Source of the DNA: Escherichia phage BYEP01
Length of the DNA stretch: 64,000 bases
Direction: 5' to 3' (one strand)
Sequence record: OR757453.1
Shown: in pieces, positions 10,710 through 60,683 of the stretch
How the letters are laid out: each line of letters begins with the position of its first letter
How positions within the stretch are numbered: position 1 is the first letter of the stretch
The notes under the pieces: model-generated
Seen by the model: the letters and a program-made list of their open reading frames with translations, nothing else
Databases searched by the model: none
What the model was told of the DNA's origin: nothing
Program-made: the position numbers and the translations under genes

Positions 10710-10989
10710 ATATAAATCCGACTTTGATGTTAATATTCACCGTGGTACATTTTGGGGAAATTACGTCGGTAAAGATGCTGGCAGCCGGGAGGCTGCCATT
10801 GAATTATTCAAAAAAGATTTTATACGTCGAATTAAATCCGGAGAAATAACTAAAGCACATTTAGAGCCTTTACGTGGAATGAGGCTAGGATGCACATGTA
10901 AACCAAAGCCGTGTCATGGTGATATAATAGCTCATATAGTTAACCGATTGTTTAAAGACGATTTTCAAGTTGAGGACTTATGCAATTAA
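10663..10989 (+). CDS. hypothetical protein (108 aa; nrdA.1-position) with DUF4326-like CxC...CHGD motif
   Basis: ...[26 protein letters not shown]...[19 protein letters not shown]; overlaps previous ORF by 47 nt and nrdA start by 10 nt. Confidence 0.6.
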
Positions 10990-12413
10990 TTAATGTTATC
11001 AAAAGTAGTGGTGTTTCTCAGAGCTTTGACCCACAAAAAATTATTAAAGTTTTATCTTGGGCAGCTGAAGGAACATCTGTAGATCCTTATGAATTATATG
11101 AAAATATTAAATCATATCTCCGTGATGGAATGACCACTGATGACATTCAGACTATTGTCATTAAGGCTGCTGCGAATTCTATTTCGGTTGAAGAGCCTGA
11201 TTATCAATATGTAGCTGCACGCTGTTTAATGTTTGCTCTTCGTAAGCATGTTTACGGGCAATATGAACCACGTTCATTTATTGACCATATTTCTTACTGC
11301 GTAAATGAAGGTAAATATGACCCTGAATTGTTGTCAAAATATTCAGCAGAAGAAATTACATTTTTAGAATCAAAAATTAAGCACGAGCGGGATATGGAAT
11401 TTACTTATTCCGGGGCGATGCAATTAAAAGAAAAATATCTAGTTAAAGATAAAACCACTGGTCAAATTTATGAAACTCCACAGTTTGCATTTATGGCTAT
11501 TGGAATGGCACTGCATCAAGATGAACCTGTTGATAGATTAAAACATGTCATTCGTTTTTATGAAGCAGTATCTACTCGACAGATTTCATTGCCAACTCCT
11601 ATTATGGCTGGTTGTCGTACTCCAACTCGACAGTTTAGTTCATGCGTTGTTATTGAAGCAGGTGATTCGCTGAAGTCTATCAATAAGGCTTCTGCTTCAA
11701 TTGTTGAGTATATTTCTAAACGAGCTGGAATTGGCATTAACGTTGGTATGATTCGTGCCGAAGGTTCTAAGATTAGCACAGGTGAAGTGCGTCATACTGG
11801 TGTTATTCCTTTTTGGAAACATTTTCAGACTGCAGTTAAATCATGCTCACAGGGTGGAATTCGTGGCGGCGCTGCTACTGCTTATTATCCTATTTGGCAT
11901 TTGGAAGTTGAAAATCTTCTCGTTTTGAAAAATAACAAAGGCGTAGAAGAAAACCGTATTCGTCATATGGATTATGGCGTCCAGCTGAATGATTTGATGA
12001 TGGAACGTTTTGGAAAGAACGACTACATTACTTTGTTCAGTCCACATGAAATGGGTGGTGAGCTTTATTATTCTTATTTTAAAGACCAAGACCGTTTCCG
12101 TGAATTATATGAAGCCGCAGAAAAAGACCCTAATATTCGTAAAAAGCGTATTAAAGCCCGTGAACTGTTTGAATTGCTCATGACTGAACGATCAGGAACA
12201 GCAAGGATTTATGTACAGTTCATAGATAATACGAATAACTATACTCCGTTTATTCGTGAAAAGGCACCTATTCGTCAGAGCAACTTGTGTTGTGAAATTG
12301 CTATTCCAACAAATGATGTGAATAGTCAACAAACCCGTTTAATCAAAATTAAGAAGTCGGATGTAGCTAAGTTTTATGAAGCTAATCCTGGCGGTATAAT
12401 TCAAAGCAAATAA
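10980..12413 (+). CDS. nrdA: ribonucleotide reductase large subunit NrdA, N-terminal fragment (477 aa; about 449 NrdA residues plus 28-aa unrelated tail)
   Basis: [31 protein letters not shown]...RQSNLCCEIAIPTNDVNS then QQTRLIKIKKSDVAKFYEANPGGIIQSK-stop; class I RNR alpha homology up to the NLCxEI active-site motif. Confidence 0.9.
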   Translation: MQLINVIKSSGVSQSFDPQKIIKVLSWAAEGTSVDPYELYENIKSYLRDGMTTDDIQTIVIKAAANSISVEEPDYQYVAARCLMFALRKHVYGQYEPRSFIDHISYCVNEGKYDPELLSKYSAEEITFLESKIKHERDMEFTYSGAMQLKEKYLVKDKTTGQIYETPQFAFMAIGMALHQDEPVDRLKHVIRFYEAVSTRQISLPTPIMAGCRTPTRQFSSCVVIEAGDSLKSINKASASIVEYISKRAGIGINVGMIRAEGSKISTGEVRHTGVIPFWKHFQTAVKSCSQGGIRGGAATAYYPIWHLEVENLLVLKNNKGVEENRIRHMDYGVQLNDLMMERFGKNDYITLFSPHEMGGELYYSYFKDQDRFRELYEAAEKDPNIRKKRIKARELFELLMTERSGTARIYVQFIDNTNNYTPFIREKAPIRQSNLCCEIAIPTNDVNSQQTRLIKIKKSDVAKFYEANPGGIIQSK

Positions 12414-12461: not shown

Positions 12462-13172
12462 ATGGATTATTCTAAAATTTACAATAACCTTATTTCTAAA
12501 GCTAAGAATAGAAAATTAGATTGCTATACCGAATCACACCATATTATACCTCTGTGTATTGGCGGTTCTGATACAAAAGAAAACCTGGTAGATTTGACAC
12601 CAGAAGAGCATTACATAGCTCATCAATTATTAGTAAAGATATATCCAGATAATCATAAATTGATATTTGCCGCTAATATGATGTGTGTTTATTCTGAAGA
12701 TAATATTGAACGAAAGAACACCAATAAACGTCATGGGTGGCTTAGAAGAAAATTGGCTATTTCTGTATCTGAAAATAATAAAGGCAAACCGGCTTGGAAC
12801 AAAGGTATTCCTATGTCTCCAGAAGTTAAATCTCGACTTCAAACATCTTGGGTGTTTACATTTCCGGATGGTCATGAGGAAATTCATCGAGGTCTTAACG
12901 AATTTTGTAAAGAGCATAATTTAAATGCATCTGCGATGTCAGCCGTTTGTAAAGGTAAACGGGCGCATCACAAAGGATTTAAGTGTAAGAAATTGGATAA
13001 GATTTCAGAGCTTGATAATTTAGTTTTCGTCAGTAAACCTCATCCAAAGGGATTAAAACCCCATAACTTAATTGCTGTAAAAATAAACGGTATAGAATAT
13101 CAATCAATACATCGAGCATCTAAAGCTTTAGGAATTACTAGAAAAAAGGTAGAAGAATTAAATGAATATTGA
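12462..13172 (+). CDS. HNH homing endonuclease (Mob-like, 236 aa) inserted within nrdA
   Basis: GAGGA RBS then ATG; MDYSKIYNNLISKAKNRKLDCYTESHHIIPLCIGGSDTKENLVDLTPEEHYIAHQLL = HNH motif; paralogous to ORFs 39813..40505 and 58945..59757. Confidence 0.85.
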   Translation: MDYSKIYNNLISKAKNRKLDCYTESHHIIPLCIGGSDTKENLVDLTPEEHYIAHQLLVKIYPDNHKLIFAANMMCVYSEDNIERKNTNKRHGWLRRKLAISVSENNKGKPAWNKGIPMSPEVKSRLQTSWVFTFPDGHEEIHRGLNEFCKEHNLNASAMSAVCKGKRAHHKGFKCKKLDKISELDNLVFVSKPHPKGLKPHNLIAVKINGIEYQSIHRASKALGITRKKVEELNEY

Positions 13173-14151
13173 TTATGAATTTGTAGATGAATTTTACGAA
13201 GATGATGAGTATACTACAATAGAAGTTATTGAAAACAGGGGAGAAGTGGGGCTTTGTACCCTTAGCGCATTTGTGTTGGATAACTTCGATTGGCAAGACC
13301 AAGACAAAATTAATGAATTAGCAGAAGTTCAAGTTCGTGCTCTTGATAATCTTTTGGACTACCAAGGATATCCAGTTCCTGAAGCAGAAAAAGCTAAAAA
13401 GCGTCGAAACCTTGGCGTAGGTGTTACTAACTATGCAGCTTGGCTGGCAAGTAACTTTGCTTCTTATGAAGATGCTAACGATTTAACACATGAACTATTT
13501 GAGAGATTGCAGTATGGACTCATTAAAGCATCCATTAAGCTCGCCAAAGAAAAAGGACCTTGCGAATATTATTCAGACACTCGTTGGTCTCGAGGCGAAT
13601 TACCTATCGACTGGTACAATAAAAAGATTGACCAAATCGCAGCTCCAAAATACGTTTGTGATTGGGACGAACTTCGATCTGAACTCAAACAGCATGGAAT
13701 TCGAAATTCTACTTTATCCGCGTTGATGCCGTGTGAATCATCCAGTCAGGTATCTAACAGTACAAACGGTATCGAGCCTCCACGTGGACCAGTCTCTGTT
13801 AAAGAATCAAAAGAGGGTTCCTTTAATCAAGTCGTGCCCAATATTGAGCATAACATAGACCTCTATGATTATACGTGGAAATTAGCTAAGAAAGGTAATA
13901 AACCTTATCTTACGCAGGTAGCTATTATGCTGAAATGGGTATGTCAATCAGCTTCAGCGAATACATATTATGACCCGCAGATTTTTCCAAAAGGAAAGGT
14001 TCCAATGTCTGTAATGATTGATGACATGCTATACGGATGGTATTATGGCATTAAAAACTTCTATTATCATAATACCCGTGATGGTTCTGGTACTGATGAT
14101 TATGAAATAGAAACTCCCAAAGCTGAAGATTGTTCATCCTGTAAATTATGA
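13162..14151 (+). CDS. nrdA: ribonucleotide reductase large subunit NrdA, C-terminal fragment (329 aa; 26-aa novel leader then NrdA from GEVGLCTLSAF)
   Basis: MNIDYEFVDEFYEDDEYTTIEVIENR-GEVGLCTLSAFVLDNFDW...NSTLSALMPCESSSQVSNSTNGIEPPRG...YYHNTRDGSG...CSSCKL matches class I RNR alpha C-terminal half; ATG lies within last codons of the HNH ORF. Confidence 0.9.
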   Translation: MNIDYEFVDEFYEDDEYTTIEVIENRGEVGLCTLSAFVLDNFDWQDQDKINELAEVQVRALDNLLDYQGYPVPEAEKAKKRRNLGVGVTNYAAWLASNFASYEDANDLTHELFERLQYGLIKASIKLAKEKGPCEYYSDTRWSRGELPIDWYNKKIDQIAAPKYVCDWDELRSELKQHGIRNSTLSALMPCESSSQVSNSTNGIEPPRGPVSVKESKEGSFNQVVPNIEHNIDLYDYTWKLAKKGNKPYLTQVAIMLKWVCQSASANTYYDPQIFPKGKVPMSVMIDDMLYGWYYGIKNFYYHNTRDGSGTDDYEIETPKAEDCSSCKL

Positions 14152-39332: not shown

Positions 39333-39500
39333 ATGTCAGATAAGATTTGTGTTGTCTGTAAAACTCCAATCGATTCTGCATTGGTTGTTGAAACAGACAA
39401 AGGTCCTGTACATCCTGGGCCTTGCTATAATTACATTAAAGAACTACCGGTTTCAGAAAGTTCGGAAGAACAATTAAATGAAACACAACTTTTGCTATAG
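39333..39500 (+). CDS. hypothetical small Cys-rich protein (55 aa; uvsY.-2-position; below ORF-track cutoff)
   Basis: GAGGAG RBS (39321-39326) then ATG 39333; MSDKICVVCKTPIDSALVVETDKGPVHPGPCYNY...; stop TAG 39498-39500. Confidence 0.55.
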   Translation: MSDKICVVCKTPIDSALVVETDKGPVHPGPCYNYIKELPVSESSEEQLNETQLLL

Positions 39501-39523
39501 TGTGACCTTTAGTCTATAGTTTT

Positions 39524-39555
39524 GGCCCTTCCTTTTTTGGTTGGGCCTTTTTTAA
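39524..39555 (+). terminator. hairpin GGCCC...GGGCC followed by TTTTTT (terminator of the 25-uvsY transcription unit)
   Basis: Inverted repeat 39524-39528 / 39543-39547, then T6. Confidence 0.55.
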
Positions 39556-39556
39556 T

Positions 39557-39787
39557 TTAAAAGCTTTCTTCTACTTCATCGTCTGAATCTTCTAATTCAG
39601 CTCTTTTTCCTGCCAAAGCATCTCTGACAGAGATGTCATCAGTATCTTTTAATTCAGTTTCTTTAACTCTTTTCTTGTAATAAGCTTCAAGTTCTTCTAG
39701 ACCTTCTAATGTTTGACAAGAGGCAATTTTACCCATAAATTCATCAATAGAAGCTTCATAAAGAAATTGTTTAAATTCTAGTAACAT
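39557..39787 (-). CDS. uvsW.1: UvsW.1 (76 aa)
   Basis: Track ORF 39557..39799 starts at TTG; GGAG RBS then ATG 39787: MLLEFKQFLYEASIDEFMGKIASCQTLEGLEELEAYYKKRVKETELKD..., recognised as T4 UvsW.1. Confidence 0.85.
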   Translation of the reverse strand: MLLEFKQFLYEASIDEFMGKIASCQTLEGLEELEAYYKKRVKETELKDTDDISVRDALAGKRAELEDSDDEVEESF

Positions 39788-39812
39788 CTTTTTCTCCAAA
39801 GGGCCGGAGCCC

Positions 39813-40505
39813 TTATAAATTAACTGTTTTTCTAAGTATTCTTAGTTTGTACATTGATAATCCAGTAGCTTTAGAAGCATCTTTCATGCATTTATACTTA
39901 ACACCATTTACTTCTATAGGTTTAGCAGCTGGGTTATTAGCTCCTGAATTATCTGGCATGTTATCTTTAATTTTCTGAATAGATTTAGCGGAATGTTTCC
40001 TTCCATACATGCCATTATTTTTACCTGATTGATTGATAGAATGCAATCTTTTAGCTTCTTCAGTCCATTTTGTTGGGTTCATTCTTTTAGTTTTACTAAT
40101 TTTACTTCCCCACGTAATTGGACGATTTTTCATGAGTTTTGACATATATTGTTTATGTTCTTCCGTATGGTGTTTTCCGTAAAATGGATTACCTTCACCT
40201 GATTGAAGTTTTGCCATTTTACGACGTTCCCAGGCGTAAGATTTATTAACGTGTCTTTCATGAGTATTTGAATTCATTCCCATACATATAACGGCTTTAA
40301 TTATACCGTAATGGTTTGGATGAATTTTAGCTAAAAGTTTATGAGCTATAAAATGCTCTTCAGCTGTTAGTTCTACCAAATTACACTTATCATCTGTACC
40401 ACCCATACATCTAGGAATTATATGATGAGTTTCAGTGTATCCATTAAGGCGAGCCCGATTCTGGGCTCTATTAATTAAATTATCATATATTAATTTATAA
40501 TTCAA
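39813..40505 (-). CDS. HNH homing endonuclease (Mob-like, 230 aa) between uvsW and uvsW.1; apparent TTG start
   Basis: MNYKLIYDNLINRAQNRARLNGYTETHHIIPRCMGGTDDKCNLVELTAEEHFIAHKLL (HNH motif); start codon TTG (rc of 40503-40505) overlaps uvsW stop; AAGAGG RBS 7 nt upstream. Confidence 0.8.
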   Translation of the reverse strand: MNYKLIYDNLINRAQNRARLNGYTETHHIIPRCMGGTDDKCNLVELTAEEHFIAHKLLAKIHPNHYGIIKAVICMGMNSNTHERHVNKSYAWERRKMAKLQSGEGNPFYGKHHTEEHKQYMSKLMKNRPITWGSKISKTKRMNPTKWTEEAKRLHSINQSGKNNGMYGRKHSAKSIQKIKDNMPDNSGANNPAAKPIEVNGVKYKCMKDASKATGLSMYKLRILRKTVNL

Positions 40506-42013
40506 AGTTTAACCTCTTTCATCACATAATTAAACTTCTCATCAGCATAACGCTGAATACGATCAAGTCCATGTTTTAAAAGATAGTTTAAATGCGAGTA
40601 TTTTTTAGAAGATGTTTTTGATTTAGAAACTACGCCCGCGTCATCTATGAGATCCCAGACTGTTGCGATTGTTTTAGAACCATGCTTACGTAATACGCGA
40701 CCTATTGTTTGCAATACAATAATTTTAGATTTAACACCGTGTGCTAAAACAACATGATGCAGATTTTTAACTGAAATACCAGTAGAAAATACACCATAAC
40801 TCGCTACTATAATTATTCCTTTACCATTTTCAGCTAAGGTTTTCATTACGTTGCGGGTTTCGGTATCAACTTCCCCTGATACGTAATAAACTTTATCGTA
40901 TTCATTTTTAATTAAATCGAAAATAGCTTTACCGTGCGATACGTGTTTAAACATGACAAAAGCGTTTTCATCTTTTTGTGCAAGTTTAATAGCTAATTTA
41001 GCGATCCATTTATTTCTTTTACTGAGCCCAGTAATAATTTTTATTTCTTCTTGGTAAGTTTTTCCCTTTAATTTAGTAGTGAACTCATCAGGATAGCGAA
41101 GAAAAATACTATTAATTTTTAACTCAGTTACTTGTCCATCTTCCATTAATTTAGAAGTCGTTACTGGCTTAAATATTTCACCAAACATTCCAACATACTG
41201 CATGATATTGGCTTTGCCATCACGTAATGAACCGGACAAACCGAATTTGAACATGCAGTTATTTAAACCTGATATGATAGATGAAATACTTTTTCCTGTA
41301 GCAAGATGGCATTCATCATTCATCATCATTCCAAACTGTGAGAACCATTCTTTCGGTTGTTTAACTACAGTTTGCCATGTACCAACGACGACTGGTGCAT
41401 CATTTTTATATTTATCATCTTTTGATGCTCCGCCGCCAATTTTCTTTATCATTGCATGACTGAATAAACGATAGTCAACAAAGTCATCAGCCATCTGAGT
41501 TGTCAGAGCAGTTGTTGGAACAATGATAAGAATTTTACCTTCATAATTTTCCAAATAATATCGCGCAAGCAAAGCTTGGATTAACGATTTACCAGCGGAT
41601 GTTGGAAGATTAAGAATTCTACGACGATTAACTAATCCTTCGAACACTGCATCTTTTTGATACCAGTGCGGTTCAATTCTTTTATTTCCTGAATAGATTT
41701 CTAATTTAGAAAGCCATTCATCAAAATCTTTTCTTGATAATTCTTCTTTTTCGTTAATCTGCGGGTCAATCCAGGCTTTATAGCCAAAATTATCACAGAA
41801 CTTTTTAATTTGCCCGACTAAGCCGAATGGAAGAAGACGATTATAATCTAAAAGACGGATTCGTCCATCCCAGTGGCCATATCTGTATTTCGGATTAAAA
41901 CGATACCCATCAGCTTCAAAGCTAAAGAAATCACGGAGTTCATGAAATGTACTTTCTTCACAATCAATTCTCACGTGACTAAAATCATAAAAATGTACTT
42001 TAATGTCAGTCAT
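40502..42013 (-). CDS. uvsW: UvsW RNA-DNA and DNA helicase (503 aa)
   Basis: MTDIKVHFYDFSHVRIDCEESTFHELRDFFSFEADGYRFNPKYRYGHWDGRIRLL...PTSAGKS (Walker A)...DECH; recognised as T4 UvsW. Confidence 0.95.
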   Translation of the reverse strand: MTDIKVHFYDFSHVRIDCEESTFHELRDFFSFEADGYRFNPKYRYGHWDGRIRLLDYNRLLPFGLVGQIKKFCDNFGYKAWIDPQINEKEELSRKDFDEWLSKLEIYSGNKRIEPHWYQKDAVFEGLVNRRRILNLPTSAGKSLIQALLARYYLENYEGKILIIVPTTALTTQMADDFVDYRLFSHAMIKKIGGGASKDDKYKNDAPVVVGTWQTVVKQPKEWFSQFGMMMNDECHLATGKSISSIISGLNNCMFKFGLSGSLRDGKANIMQYVGMFGEIFKPVTTSKLMEDGQVTELKINSIFLRYPDEFTTKLKGKTYQEEIKIITGLSKRNKWIAKLAIKLAQKDENAFVMFKHVSHGKAIFDLIKNEYDKVYYVSGEVDTETRNVMKTLAENGKGIIIVASYGVFSTGISVKNLHHVVLAHGVKSKIIVLQTIGRVLRKHGSKTIATVWDLIDDAGVVSKSKTSSKKYSHLNYLLKHGLDRIQRYADEKFNYVMKEVKL

Positions 42014-42063
42014 GTCTAAATACCATGTAATAAATATATCTATATTTATACTGAGGAAATATT

Positions 42064-42744
42064 ATGATAGATAAAGATTATATTGCAGAGCTGAAGGCTC
42101 TTGATGATAATAAAGAAGCTAAAGCTAAATTAGCTGAATACGCTGAACAGTTTGGTATAAAGGTCAAAAAGAATAAATCTTTTGATAATATCGTTGCTGA
42201 TATTGAAGAAGCCCTCCAGAAGCTCGCTAGTGAACCTATGCCAGAGACTGATGGGTTATCTATTAAAGACTTAATTGATGCTGCTGATGCCGCAGACGGA
42301 TTAAAATATGACGATGAAGAAGTCAATCCAGAGGCAGCACTTCTGATTGATTCTCCGGTTAAATCTGACATTAAAATTGAAGTAGTAGAAATGGATAAAA
42401 TTCCTGAAAATACCGATGTTTTGATTGAAGATACTCCTTTTGTTGAAGAAAAATTCGAGCAGGCTGTAGCTGAGATTATTGAATCTGAAAAGCCGTCTGT
42501 ATTTACTCTTCCGGAAAACTTTAGTCCGAATCTTCAGCTGATTGGAAAAAATCCAGGATTCTGCACTGTTCCTTGGTGGATTTATCAATGGATAGCTGAA
42601 ACTCCGGATTGGAAATCTCACCCAACTAGTTTTGAACACGCGTCGGCACATCAAACTTTATTTAGCTTAATTTATTACATTAATCGCGACGGATCAGTTC
42701 TAATTCGTGAAACACGCAACTCTTCTTTCGTAACATTAAAATAA
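42064..42744 (+). CDS. inh: Inh, inhibitor of prohead protease (226 aa)
   Basis: MIDKDYIAELKALDDNKEAKAKLAEYAEQFGIKVKKNKSFDNIVADIEEALQ... recognised as T4 Inh. Confidence 0.85.
   Translation: MIDKDYIAELKALDDNKEAKAKLAEYAEQFGIKVKKNKSFDNIVADIEEALQKLASEPMPETDGLSIKDLIDAADAADGLKYDDEEVNPEAALLIDSPVKSDIKIEVVEMDKIPENTDVLIEDTPFVEEKFEQAVAEIIESEKPSVFTLPENFSPNLQLIGKNPGFCTVPWWIYQWIAETPDWKSHPTSFEHASAHQTLFSLIYYINRDGSVLIRETRNSSFVTLK

Positions 42745-58172: not shown

Positions 58173-60683
<2,511 letters not shown>

Follow-up and report, generated by a model that had tools for sequence, protein, structure and literature searches.

The T4 genes mobA, C, D and E have been described as promoter-less cassettes, the UAAUGA overlap at the start of mobE has been read as a translational coupling that limits MobE, and mobA, with its predicted GUG start, is the only free-standing endonuclease gene of T4 for which a non-AUG start is predicted (review PMC2988022). 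The same review reports that a hairpin in the 5' coding region of T4 mobE is a weak intragenic terminator stopping approximately 30% of transcripts, that the regulation of Aeh1 mobE is multi-layered and includes a hairpin sequestering the ribosome-binding site, and that I-HmuI and I-BasI serve as mechanistic models of how Mob-type enzymes nick a strand (PMC2988022). As for UUG starts, initiation at UUG reaches 10-100% of that at AUG in E. coli reporters, and approximately 3% of E. coli genes start with this codon (bioRxiv 10.1101/063800). Here, we analyze a gene at the junction of the helicase gene uvsW and its neighbor uvsW.1 in a stretch of 64,000 nucleotides (nt) from Escherichia phage BYEP01 (record OR757453.1), which we call the window and whose positions serve as coordinates throughout. 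In our view, this is very probably a free-standing, promoter-less, MobE-like HNH homing endonuclease gene (HEG) at the 3' end of uvsW, which is translated at a low level coupled to uvsW and homes into alleles that lack it. The window comes from a Tequatrovirus (T4/T6-like), and its minus-strand genes uvsW, HEG and uvsW.1 converge on the plus-strand genes uvsY.-2, uvsY.-1, uvsY, 25 and 26. The features on which the argument draws are these:

39813..40505, minus strand: open reading frame (ORF) of the HEG, 230 sense codons plus TAA, predicted Mob-type HNH endonuclease
Domains of the HEG by codon: HNH motif at approximately 23-55, NUMOD3 motifs at approximately 94-122 and 160-175, I-TevI-like helix-turn-helix at approximately 193-218
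40503..40505, minus strand: TTG initiation codon, its last two bases overlapping the uvsW stop TGA (40502-40504) as CTTTGA
40513..40518, minus strand: Shine-Dalgarno sequence AAGAGG, formed by the recoded uvsW codons Lys-Glu-Val, with a spacer of 7 nt (TTAAACT) to the TTG
39828..40516, minus strand: insert of 689 nt relative to HEG-less Tequatrovirus alleles, boundaries ambiguous by 1-2 A residues
40502..40516, minus strand: 5'-terminal part of the insert, a substitute uvsW tail GAG GTT AAA CTT TGA (E V K L stop) that replaces the native T V N L stop
39813..39827, minus strand: native uvsW tail ACA GTT AAT TTA TAA, kept in its original frame and now the last four HEG codons plus stop
40502..42013, minus strand: uvsW helicase gene, 503 codons, the cistron upstream of the HEG
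39557..39787, minus strand: uvsW.1, 76 codons from its ATG (39787), the cistron downstream of the HEG
40523..40589, minus strand: block of nine fixed synonymous differences between uvsW alleles with the HEG (HEG+) and without it (HEG-), candidate recognition or nicking region (HEG-) and immunity region (HEG+)
40511..40588, minus strand: predicted 78-nt RNA hairpin in the 3' coding region of uvsW, pairing the Shine-Dalgarno sequence
40451..40468, minus strand: GC-rich hairpin GAGCCC-AGAAUC-GGGCUC, nt +38..+55 of the ORF
39801..39812, minus strand: ancestral hairpin GGGC-UCCG-GCCC between the HEG stop and the Shine-Dalgarno sequence and ATG of uvsW.1, present in HEG-less alleles too
42043..42050, minus strand: TATAAATA, T4 late-promoter consensus, approximately 30 nt upstream of uvsW

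The 230-codon HNH ORF that an earlier note on this DNA had read between the two genes was found as described and far exceeds what chance would give; judged by its relatives, its product is a Mob-type HNH endonuclease with a modular, I-TevI-like C-terminal DNA-binding module. Namely, the protein matches phrog_655, 'homing endonuclease', at E 4e-61 in the PHROGs search, and it is 52% identical to T4 MobE over 106 amino acids (aa; E 4e-33), the two N-termini being aligned from residue 1; its homology to the Mob family, whose sequences open with M-N-Y-x-K-I-Y, extends across the N-terminal HNH domain. The HH...N...H arrangement of HNH residues is present, and an alignment of 14 family members shows no variation at H27, H28, N42, H51 and H55. 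When searched against the PDB, the single sequence gave only the I-TevI DNA-binding domain (1I3J, aligned with the C-terminal 60 residues at E 0.006), and the profile of the 14-member family was needed to reach HNH structures, i.e. the HNH motif of McrA 6GHC (E 4e-5) as well as Cas8f-HNH and a group II intron maturase; neither of these two PDB searches gave a significant match to I-HmuI or I-BasI. Pfam recognizes two NUMOD3 motifs (E 1e-13) and, weakly, an I-TevI DNA-binding match. As expected of a free-standing gene, it leaves uvsW complete with its own stop and uvsW.1 intact. What is more, the paralogy to inserts in nrdA and between genes 13 and 14 that had been proposed from the letters of the window was confirmed by BLASTP against the window ORFs, in which the paralogue that splits nrdA (12462..13172, plus strand) is 33% identical over 240 aa (E 4e-33) and the one between genes 13 and 14 (58945..59757, minus strand) 40% identical over 117 aa (E 6e-22), and by their shared membership of phrog_655 (PHROGs E 9e-59 and 2e-52). 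Where the window copy has its TTG, the aligned codon of both paralogues is ATG (MDYSKIY and MNYTKIY versus (TTG)NYKLIY).

The comparative evidence indicates that this TTG is a real, conserved initiation codon, and its overlap with the uvsW stop and the AAGAGG placed 7 nt upstream were both read correctly in the earlier note, which took the TTG for the only plausible start. In the HEG frame a TAA stands two codons upstream of the TTG, so that no start further upstream is possible, and the 32-nt span over the Shine-Dalgarno sequence and the TTG is 100% identical in all 48 of the 48 HEG+ records. Since these are independent phage records, the TTG cannot be put down to a sequencing error, the escape that had been left for a hidden ATG. 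Between the window and the T6-type copy, 18 codon differences are synonymous and 5 non-synonymous (omega 0.06 at a synonymous divergence, dS, of 0.15), and against the orthologue of Klebsiella phage Roth78, where synonymous sites are saturated, omega is 0.10. Values of this order (omega approximately 0.06-0.1) point to purifying selection on the ORF, including the 33 codons before the first ATG. In particular, within Tequatrovirus the changes in codons 2-33 are synonymous at codons 7, 26 and 33 and non-synonymous only at codon 22, and the GYTExHH motif, which lies upstream of the first ATG, is conserved in Roth78 despite the saturation. Because the coding-type conservation of these N-terminal codons implies that they are translated, and because no other start is available, initiation must occur at the TTG. 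The corresponding codon is ATG (M-[ND]-Y-x-K) in metagenomic relatives from IMG/VR with a shared N-terminus. Orthologues were found at the same uvsW/uvsW.1 junction in four other lineages of the Tevenvirinae, and in all five lineages the start overlaps the TGA of uvsW (xTGA). The four are as follows, with identities relative to the window copy:

Roth78, Klebsiella phage, genus not stated in its record: 68% aa identity, start ATG, no Shine-Dalgarno sequence
NM4.3, Moonvirus: 66% aa identity, start GTG, no Shine-Dalgarno sequence
PSD2002, Dhakavirus: 59% aa identity, start TTG, Shine-Dalgarno sequence AAGAGG at 7 nt
DK-13, Gaprivervirus: 58% aa identity, start TTG, Shine-Dalgarno sequence AGGTGG

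It is the third base of the final sense codon of uvsW (TTA, TTG, CTT or ATT) that fixes which start codon is present, and for uvsW itself this is a synonymous or conservative site.

Comparison of the junctions with those of HEG-less alleles places the 689-nt insert four codons before the native stop of uvsW. The picture of an intergenic homing endonuclease drawn in the earlier note is thereby changed in part: the Mob-like, free-standing HNH gene stands, but it sits inside uvsW and brings a replacement for the uvsW tail. Namely, the HEG-less alleles (LH2, OES_C-2, TB004) read ...GTA ATG AAA ACA GTT AAT TTA TAA GGGCTTCGGCCC TTTGGAG...ATG(uvsW.1), and the window, with a slash marking the junction, reads ...GTG ATG AAA / GAG GTT AAA CTT TGA on the left and ...CTT AGA AAA / ACA GTT AAT TTA TAA GGGCTCCGGCCC on the right. 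The recoding of the tail (EVKL-TGA for TVNL-TAA) creates both the AAGAGG Shine-Dalgarno sequence and the TTG/TGA overlap, and the HEG frame exits through the native uvsW tail, stop and hairpin with their original frame kept. The hairpin that had been said to separate the HEG from uvsW.1 is indeed present at 39812-39801, but it lies outside the insert and also stands 3' of the uvsW stop in HEG-less phages. A like arrangement is met with in the other lineages. In Dhakavirus, the last seven HEG codons, stop included (ATGAAACAGGTGGATTTATGA), are identical in 21 of 21 positions to the uvsW tail of the HEG-less JS98, and in Gaprivervirus the element is flanked by a perfect 19-nt direct repeat; Roth78 retains two of the tail codons and NM4.3 none. 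Homing alone does not make target duplications, and the duplication of the tail is unaccounted for by it.

The part of uvsW next to the insert diverges in the manner expected of a target of homing. Relative to T4, uvsW.1 of the window is 97.7% identical and the middle of uvsW approximately 97%, compared with 83% over the last 300 nt of uvsW, and the uvsW 3' end of the window is found at an identity of at least 95% in exactly the 48 HEG+ records. Within the last 90 nt of uvsW, a comparison of 10 HEG+ with 3 HEG- Tequatrovirus sequences gives 16 fixed differences, nine of them synonymous third-position changes (40523-40589) and the other seven in the last four codons and the stop. Divergence of the flank, or a co-conversion tract, which would give self-immunity, is in other words seen right beside the insert; the pattern is classic for free-standing endonucleases, and the recognition or nicking site likely lies in the 3'-terminal 100 base pairs of HEG-less uvsW. 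The LH2 and OES_C phages are HEG-less mosaics, which share the distal block of HEG+ type and not the proximal one: in LH2 and OES_C-2, compared with window positions 40590..40640, a uvsW block of HEG+ type (VVSKSKTSSKKYS, not VKPKSANTKKKYV) is joined to a proximal 3' end of HEG-minus type. Such recombinant alleles suggest past exchange, or loss of the HEG, at this locus. The last 21 nt of the HEG-linked tract are closest to the left tail of the Dhakavirus HEG+ form (86%), the 54 nt upstream stand at the same distance (72-81%) from each of the lineages sampled, and a donor of the tract was not identified among these lineages.

The opposite end of uvsW deserves a remark of its own. The first 150 nt of the gene are 72-75% identical to T4 (window region 41860..42073), as against approximately 97% in mid-gene, and segE, which in T4 lies between inh and uvsW, is absent from the window. 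This 5' divergence mirrors that at the 3' end and is in line with a polymorphism of SegE target or immunity.

The comparison of the uvsW-uvsW.1 interval across relatives, which the earlier note had named as a check, was made by megablast with positions 39500-40800. The whole interval is covered at 97-99.3% identity by 48 phage records, including T6, PST, ACG-C40, HY03, UFV-AREG1 and Killian, and approximately 450 other Tequatrovirus records, T4 among them, match the flanks only, so that the HEG is present in approximately 10% of sequenced Tequatrovirus phages. Its presence is sporadic beyond this genus as well, in that HEG-less members occur also in the genera of the other lineages (JS98, 15882-3-4). 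Most records annotate a 'homing endonuclease' at the exact TTG coordinates, PST using the label 'mobD', and one record, that of phage W143, annotates the ATG-truncated ORF. Full-text searches of the literature found no paper describing the element at the uvsW junction; the genome paper of UFV-AREG1 lists two flanking 'UvsW helicase' coding sequences and passes over the gene between them without comment. It should be noted that public genomes already carry annotations of the element and that it follows known principles, and in this sense it will not surprise a specialist. Considered together, the protein, its junctions, its flanks and its distribution display every sequence-level and population-level property by which a Mob-type free-standing homing endonuclease gene would be recognized.

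Would our conclusions be different if translation started at Met34 (40406-40404)? The product would then be a 197-aa protein without the catalytic His-His pair, i.e. a nuclease-dead DNA-binding protein that might serve as a repressor or exclusion factor, and the 33 codons before it would be an untranslated leader. The W143 record annotates exactly this shorter ORF, and TATAAATT (40499-40492), which matches the late promoter in seven of eight positions just inside the long ORF, would, if active, give rise to transcripts that lack the TTG. Against this, codons 2-33 behave as coding sequence, MNYxK...GYTExHH being kept between lineages whose synonymous sites are saturated; every homologue has its first codon where the TTG aligns; Met34 has no Shine-Dalgarno sequence before it; and TATAAATT is not conserved in the orthologues, which makes a start at Met34 distinctly improbable. 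The statement in the earlier note that such a start would take away the HNH motif is itself right only in part, in that His27-His28 would be lost but Asn42, His51 and His55 would stay. A related argument accepts the TTG and takes it for a sign of decay: an ancestral ATG would have turned into TTG, translation would be effectively off, and the ORF would persist because it is young or because its deletion would harm the expression of uvsW or uvsW.1. Homing endonuclease genes do often degenerate after fixation (T4 I-TevIII is an example), the copy of Escherichia phage BF15 (MW822007.1) has suffered a 4-nt deletion that leaves a protein of 195 aa and removes the helix-turn-helix module, and the Roth78 orthologue has ATG. 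That said, an omega of approximately 0.06 at a dS of 0.15, and of 0.10 against an orthologue with saturated dS, is not what one would expect of a relic, and neither is a TTG kept in three genera with proteins only 58-59% identical to the window copy, an ORF that, BF15 aside, was intact in the 9 further Tequatrovirus copies that were examined, or a Shine-Dalgarno sequence maintained at optimal spacing. We therefore hold decay to be improbable.

It could also be argued that the endonuclease is made as a fusion with UvsW, through programmed frameshifting or stop-codon bypass from the uvsW frame, given that the two ORFs overlap, that no ATG is available, and that T4 offers a precedent of unusual decoding beside a mob gene, namely the bypass of gene 60 next to mobA. 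However, the TAA that closes the HEG frame two codons before the TTG leaves a single codon in which a shift could occur, the sequence has no slippery heptamer, and orthologues carry a plain ATG or GTG at the start codon, so that the chance of a fusion is in our estimate exceedingly small.

If the gene is indeed a promoter-less homing endonuclease gene coupled to uvsW, one can outline how it would be expressed and spread. The consensus TATAAATA (42050-42043) is the only exact late-promoter match on the minus strand between 39300 and 42300, and since it lies upstream of uvsW the element looks promoter-less; a scan for sigma-70 promoters and terminators gave matches at or below shuffle expectation and was uninformative, and TATAAATT, considered as an internal late promoter, was rejected as a designed feature, being a 7/8 match only that orthologues do not conserve. 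The HEG would share a transcript with uvsW, begun at the late promoter in front of that gene. The start overlaps the upstream stop (CUUUGA in the window, xTGA in five lineages), and at this site a low level of translation would come from ribosomes that have just terminated on uvsW and reinitiate with the aid of the Shine-Dalgarno sequence. In all Tequatrovirus copies the Shine-Dalgarno sequence is predicted to be paired in the 78-nt hairpin (probability of being unpaired 0.06-0.13, z -2.8), and such sequestration would make initiation dependent on ribosomes translating uvsW. The weak UUG, this predicted sequestering structure, and the mobE-like GC-rich hairpin at codons 13-19 would act as further brakes. 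In a mixed infection, the enzyme would nick or cut HEG-less uvsW alleles at their 3' end, and repair by recombination with HEG+ genomes would then copy the element along with a short upstream tract. The HEG+ genomes would owe their own protection to the synonymous changes clustered in the final 90 nt of uvsW.

The hairpin inside the coding region merits closer attention. At 40468-40451 (+38..+55), it is the only hairpin of -9 kcal/mol or stronger in the HEG ORF, and hairpins of differing sequence occur at +34..+64 in the four orthologues, the gene 13/14 paralogue, three IMG/VR relatives (+39..+64) and T4 mobE (+34..+53). Many mob-type genes, in other words, have a position-conserved GC-rich hairpin at codons ~12-21, where the protein sequence is poorly conserved, and AT-rich members usually have no other strong hairpin in the ORF; it was not found in the nrdA paralogue nor in four other IMG/VR relatives. 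A function as a weak terminator is known for T4 mobE only, and in the HEG a terminator, a pause site or an RNA stability element are the candidate roles for the predicted structure.

Several observations weigh against the reading of the locus as a coupled, low-output homing endonuclease gene. The Pfam HNH match taken alone is below the gathering score (16.7 versus 21.4 bits). One of the 48 copies, that of BF15, is frameshifted, which means that decay does occur, the truncation reflecting the onset of decay or else an error of sequencing. The hairpin sequestering the Shine-Dalgarno sequence is confined to Tequatrovirus copies, with a probability of being unpaired of 0.44-0.77 in the other lineages; because it is not predicted there, we give it little weight, have dropped it as a conserved regulator, and keep it as a lineage-specific prediction only, one that may be incidental. 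No U-tract follows the 5' coding hairpin, which makes mobE-like termination at it doubtful, and an RNAalifold analysis of this hairpin in five orthologues gave compensatory changes in 3 of 8 pairs, with the window copy out of register and a slightly unfavorable covariation term. Late transcription of uvsW is reportedly what happens in T4, in work credited to Derr and Kreuzer 1990, and in the window it is predicted from the consensus match. Finally, production of the protein, cutting of DNA and the position of the cut site are here predictions from sequence.

A further point of this kind concerns the start codon itself, whose departure from ATG the earlier note had taken as a possible means of throttling a toxic nuclease. 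The TTG forms go with a near-optimal Shine-Dalgarno sequence, and the ATG and GTG forms have none. Since a good Shine-Dalgarno sequence accompanies the TTG forms only, the TTG is perhaps compensated rather than a net throttle. Throttling of HEG expression by the TTG is plausible as an inference, but the net output may be similar across the TTG, ATG and GTG forms, and the TTG may be less a special extra brake than one of several interchangeable routes to an output that is low and coupled to uvsW.

One can go further and regard the element as a cassette that rewrites its host gene, in which the recoded uvsW tail serves at once as helicase C-terminus, Shine-Dalgarno sequence and overlapping near-cognate start, the native tail stays on as the C-terminus of the HEG and so preserves the original uvsW/uvsW.1 junction, the HEG is strictly slaved to the translation of uvsW, the expression of uvsW.1 has come to depend on the HEG (a form of addiction), and the hairpin at codons 12-21 is a general expression-limiting Mob module. 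We put this forward tentatively and consider it on the whole unlikely. If it were true, there would be a conserved expression-limiting module in place of lineage-specific accidents. By supplying a replacement tail, the element can in any case insert into the end of a gene of an essential pathway without damage.

Regarding the neighbors, the mechanical ORF list gives uvsW.1 a TTG start (80 aa; 39557..39799, minus strand), as annotated in the T6 record AP018814; the conserved start is the ATG at 39787 (76 aa), with GGAG in front. In the T4 RefSeq entry NC_000866 the uvsW 3' end reads TTAATAAGCTTCGGCCC, and every other Tequatrovirus reads TTATAAGGGCTTCGGCCC. The difference is a known sequence error in the GC hairpin, which fuses uvsW with uvsW.1, and uvsW is still annotated there as 587 codons. 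The idea that insertion of an ancient HEG had divided a single helicase into uvsW and uvsW.1 found no support, given that 75 of 75 UvsW.1 homologues, in a search that reaches close relatives only, are stand-alone proteins of approximately 75 aa (PF11637), none of them fused to a helicase.

As for the two paralogues, nrdA of the window lies in two ORFs of 477 and 329 aa (nrdA-N 10980..12413 and nrdA-C 13162..14151, plus strand) with the HNH gene between them, a 'gene in pieces' resembling Aeh1 nrdA/mobE. The paralogue that splits it has an ATG start behind the same AAGAGG-N7 arrangement as the uvsW element, and the 1-kilobase nrdA/HNH arrangement is fully covered in 34 other phage records, which annotate it as two nrdA coding sequences plus a homing endonuclease. 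A third HNH gene of Mob type, encoding 270 aa, is the paralogue that lies between genes 13 and 14. Its ATG overlaps the stop of gene 13 (ATGA), and its C-terminal region is Cys/His-rich in place of NUMOD3 and helix-turn-helix; its hairpin at nt +36..+57 (-9.0 kcal/mol) matches in position those of the uvsW element and T4 mobE.

What do these results mean for the T-even phages? They add to the catalogue of mobile elements a Mob-type endonuclease that is uncharacterized, widely distributed and presumed to target uvsW, and that is present even in the classic phage T6. The importance of this addition is only modest. The new points are the conserved non-AUG start, the xTGA coupling design in five lineages, the architecture of replacement tail and native tail, and the family-wide 5' hairpin. 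For annotation, it follows that the TTG start is to be kept and the ATG-truncated call rejected, and that the labels 'uvsW-A/uvsW-B' or duplicate 'DNA helicase' are to be read as flanking a mobile element. Moreover, the series of ATG, GTG and TTG starts across five lineages, all set in the unvarying xTGA overlap, some with a Shine-Dalgarno sequence and some lacking one, amounts to a natural experiment on how selfish nuclease genes arrive at low, host-coupled expression.

Among the known systems, T4 MobE, whose gene lies between nrdA and nrdB, is the closest characterized relative of the endonuclease at the uvsW junction, with 52% identity over the HNH domain. Like mobE, the uvsW element is a promoter-less cassette 3' of a host gene, its start overlaps the upstream stop (UAAUGA in mobE, CUUUGA here), and a GC-rich hairpin is found at nt +34..+55 of the coding region. 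It differs from mobE in its site, which is the 3' end of uvsW, in starting with UUG and not AUG, and in having a hairpin without a U-tract; in addition, MobE has 141 aa and the predicted uvsW endonuclease 230 aa, with NUMOD3 and an I-TevI-like helix-turn-helix. With T4 MobA, an HNH enzyme encoded at the gene 39/60 junction, the element has in common a non-AUG start (GUG in mobA) and an overlap with the upstream ORF. MobA is also said, in work attributed to Bonocora et al. 2011, to move as a cassette with sequence that preserves the function of the host gene. Unlike mobA, with its GUG, its 23-nt overlap and its bypass element, the uvsW element has UUG, a 2-nt overlap and a 15-nt replacement tail. 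Aeh1 mobE and the nrdA paralogue of the window are likewise Mob-family genes inside a host coding sequence whose function is retained, but at uvsW the displacement is confined to the last four codons, which the element supplies anew, and the helicase is not split into two polypeptides. SegE of T4 (inh/uvsW junction) also targets uvsW, but it belongs to a different nuclease family, GIY-YIG, and sits at the opposite end of the gene. I-HmuI and I-BasI of Bacillus phages resemble the uvsW endonuclease in combining an HNH domain with NUMOD-type linker motifs and a C-terminal helix-turn-helix, and differ from it in being intron-encoded. By analogy, then, the element at the uvsW junction works like T4 MobE and MobA.

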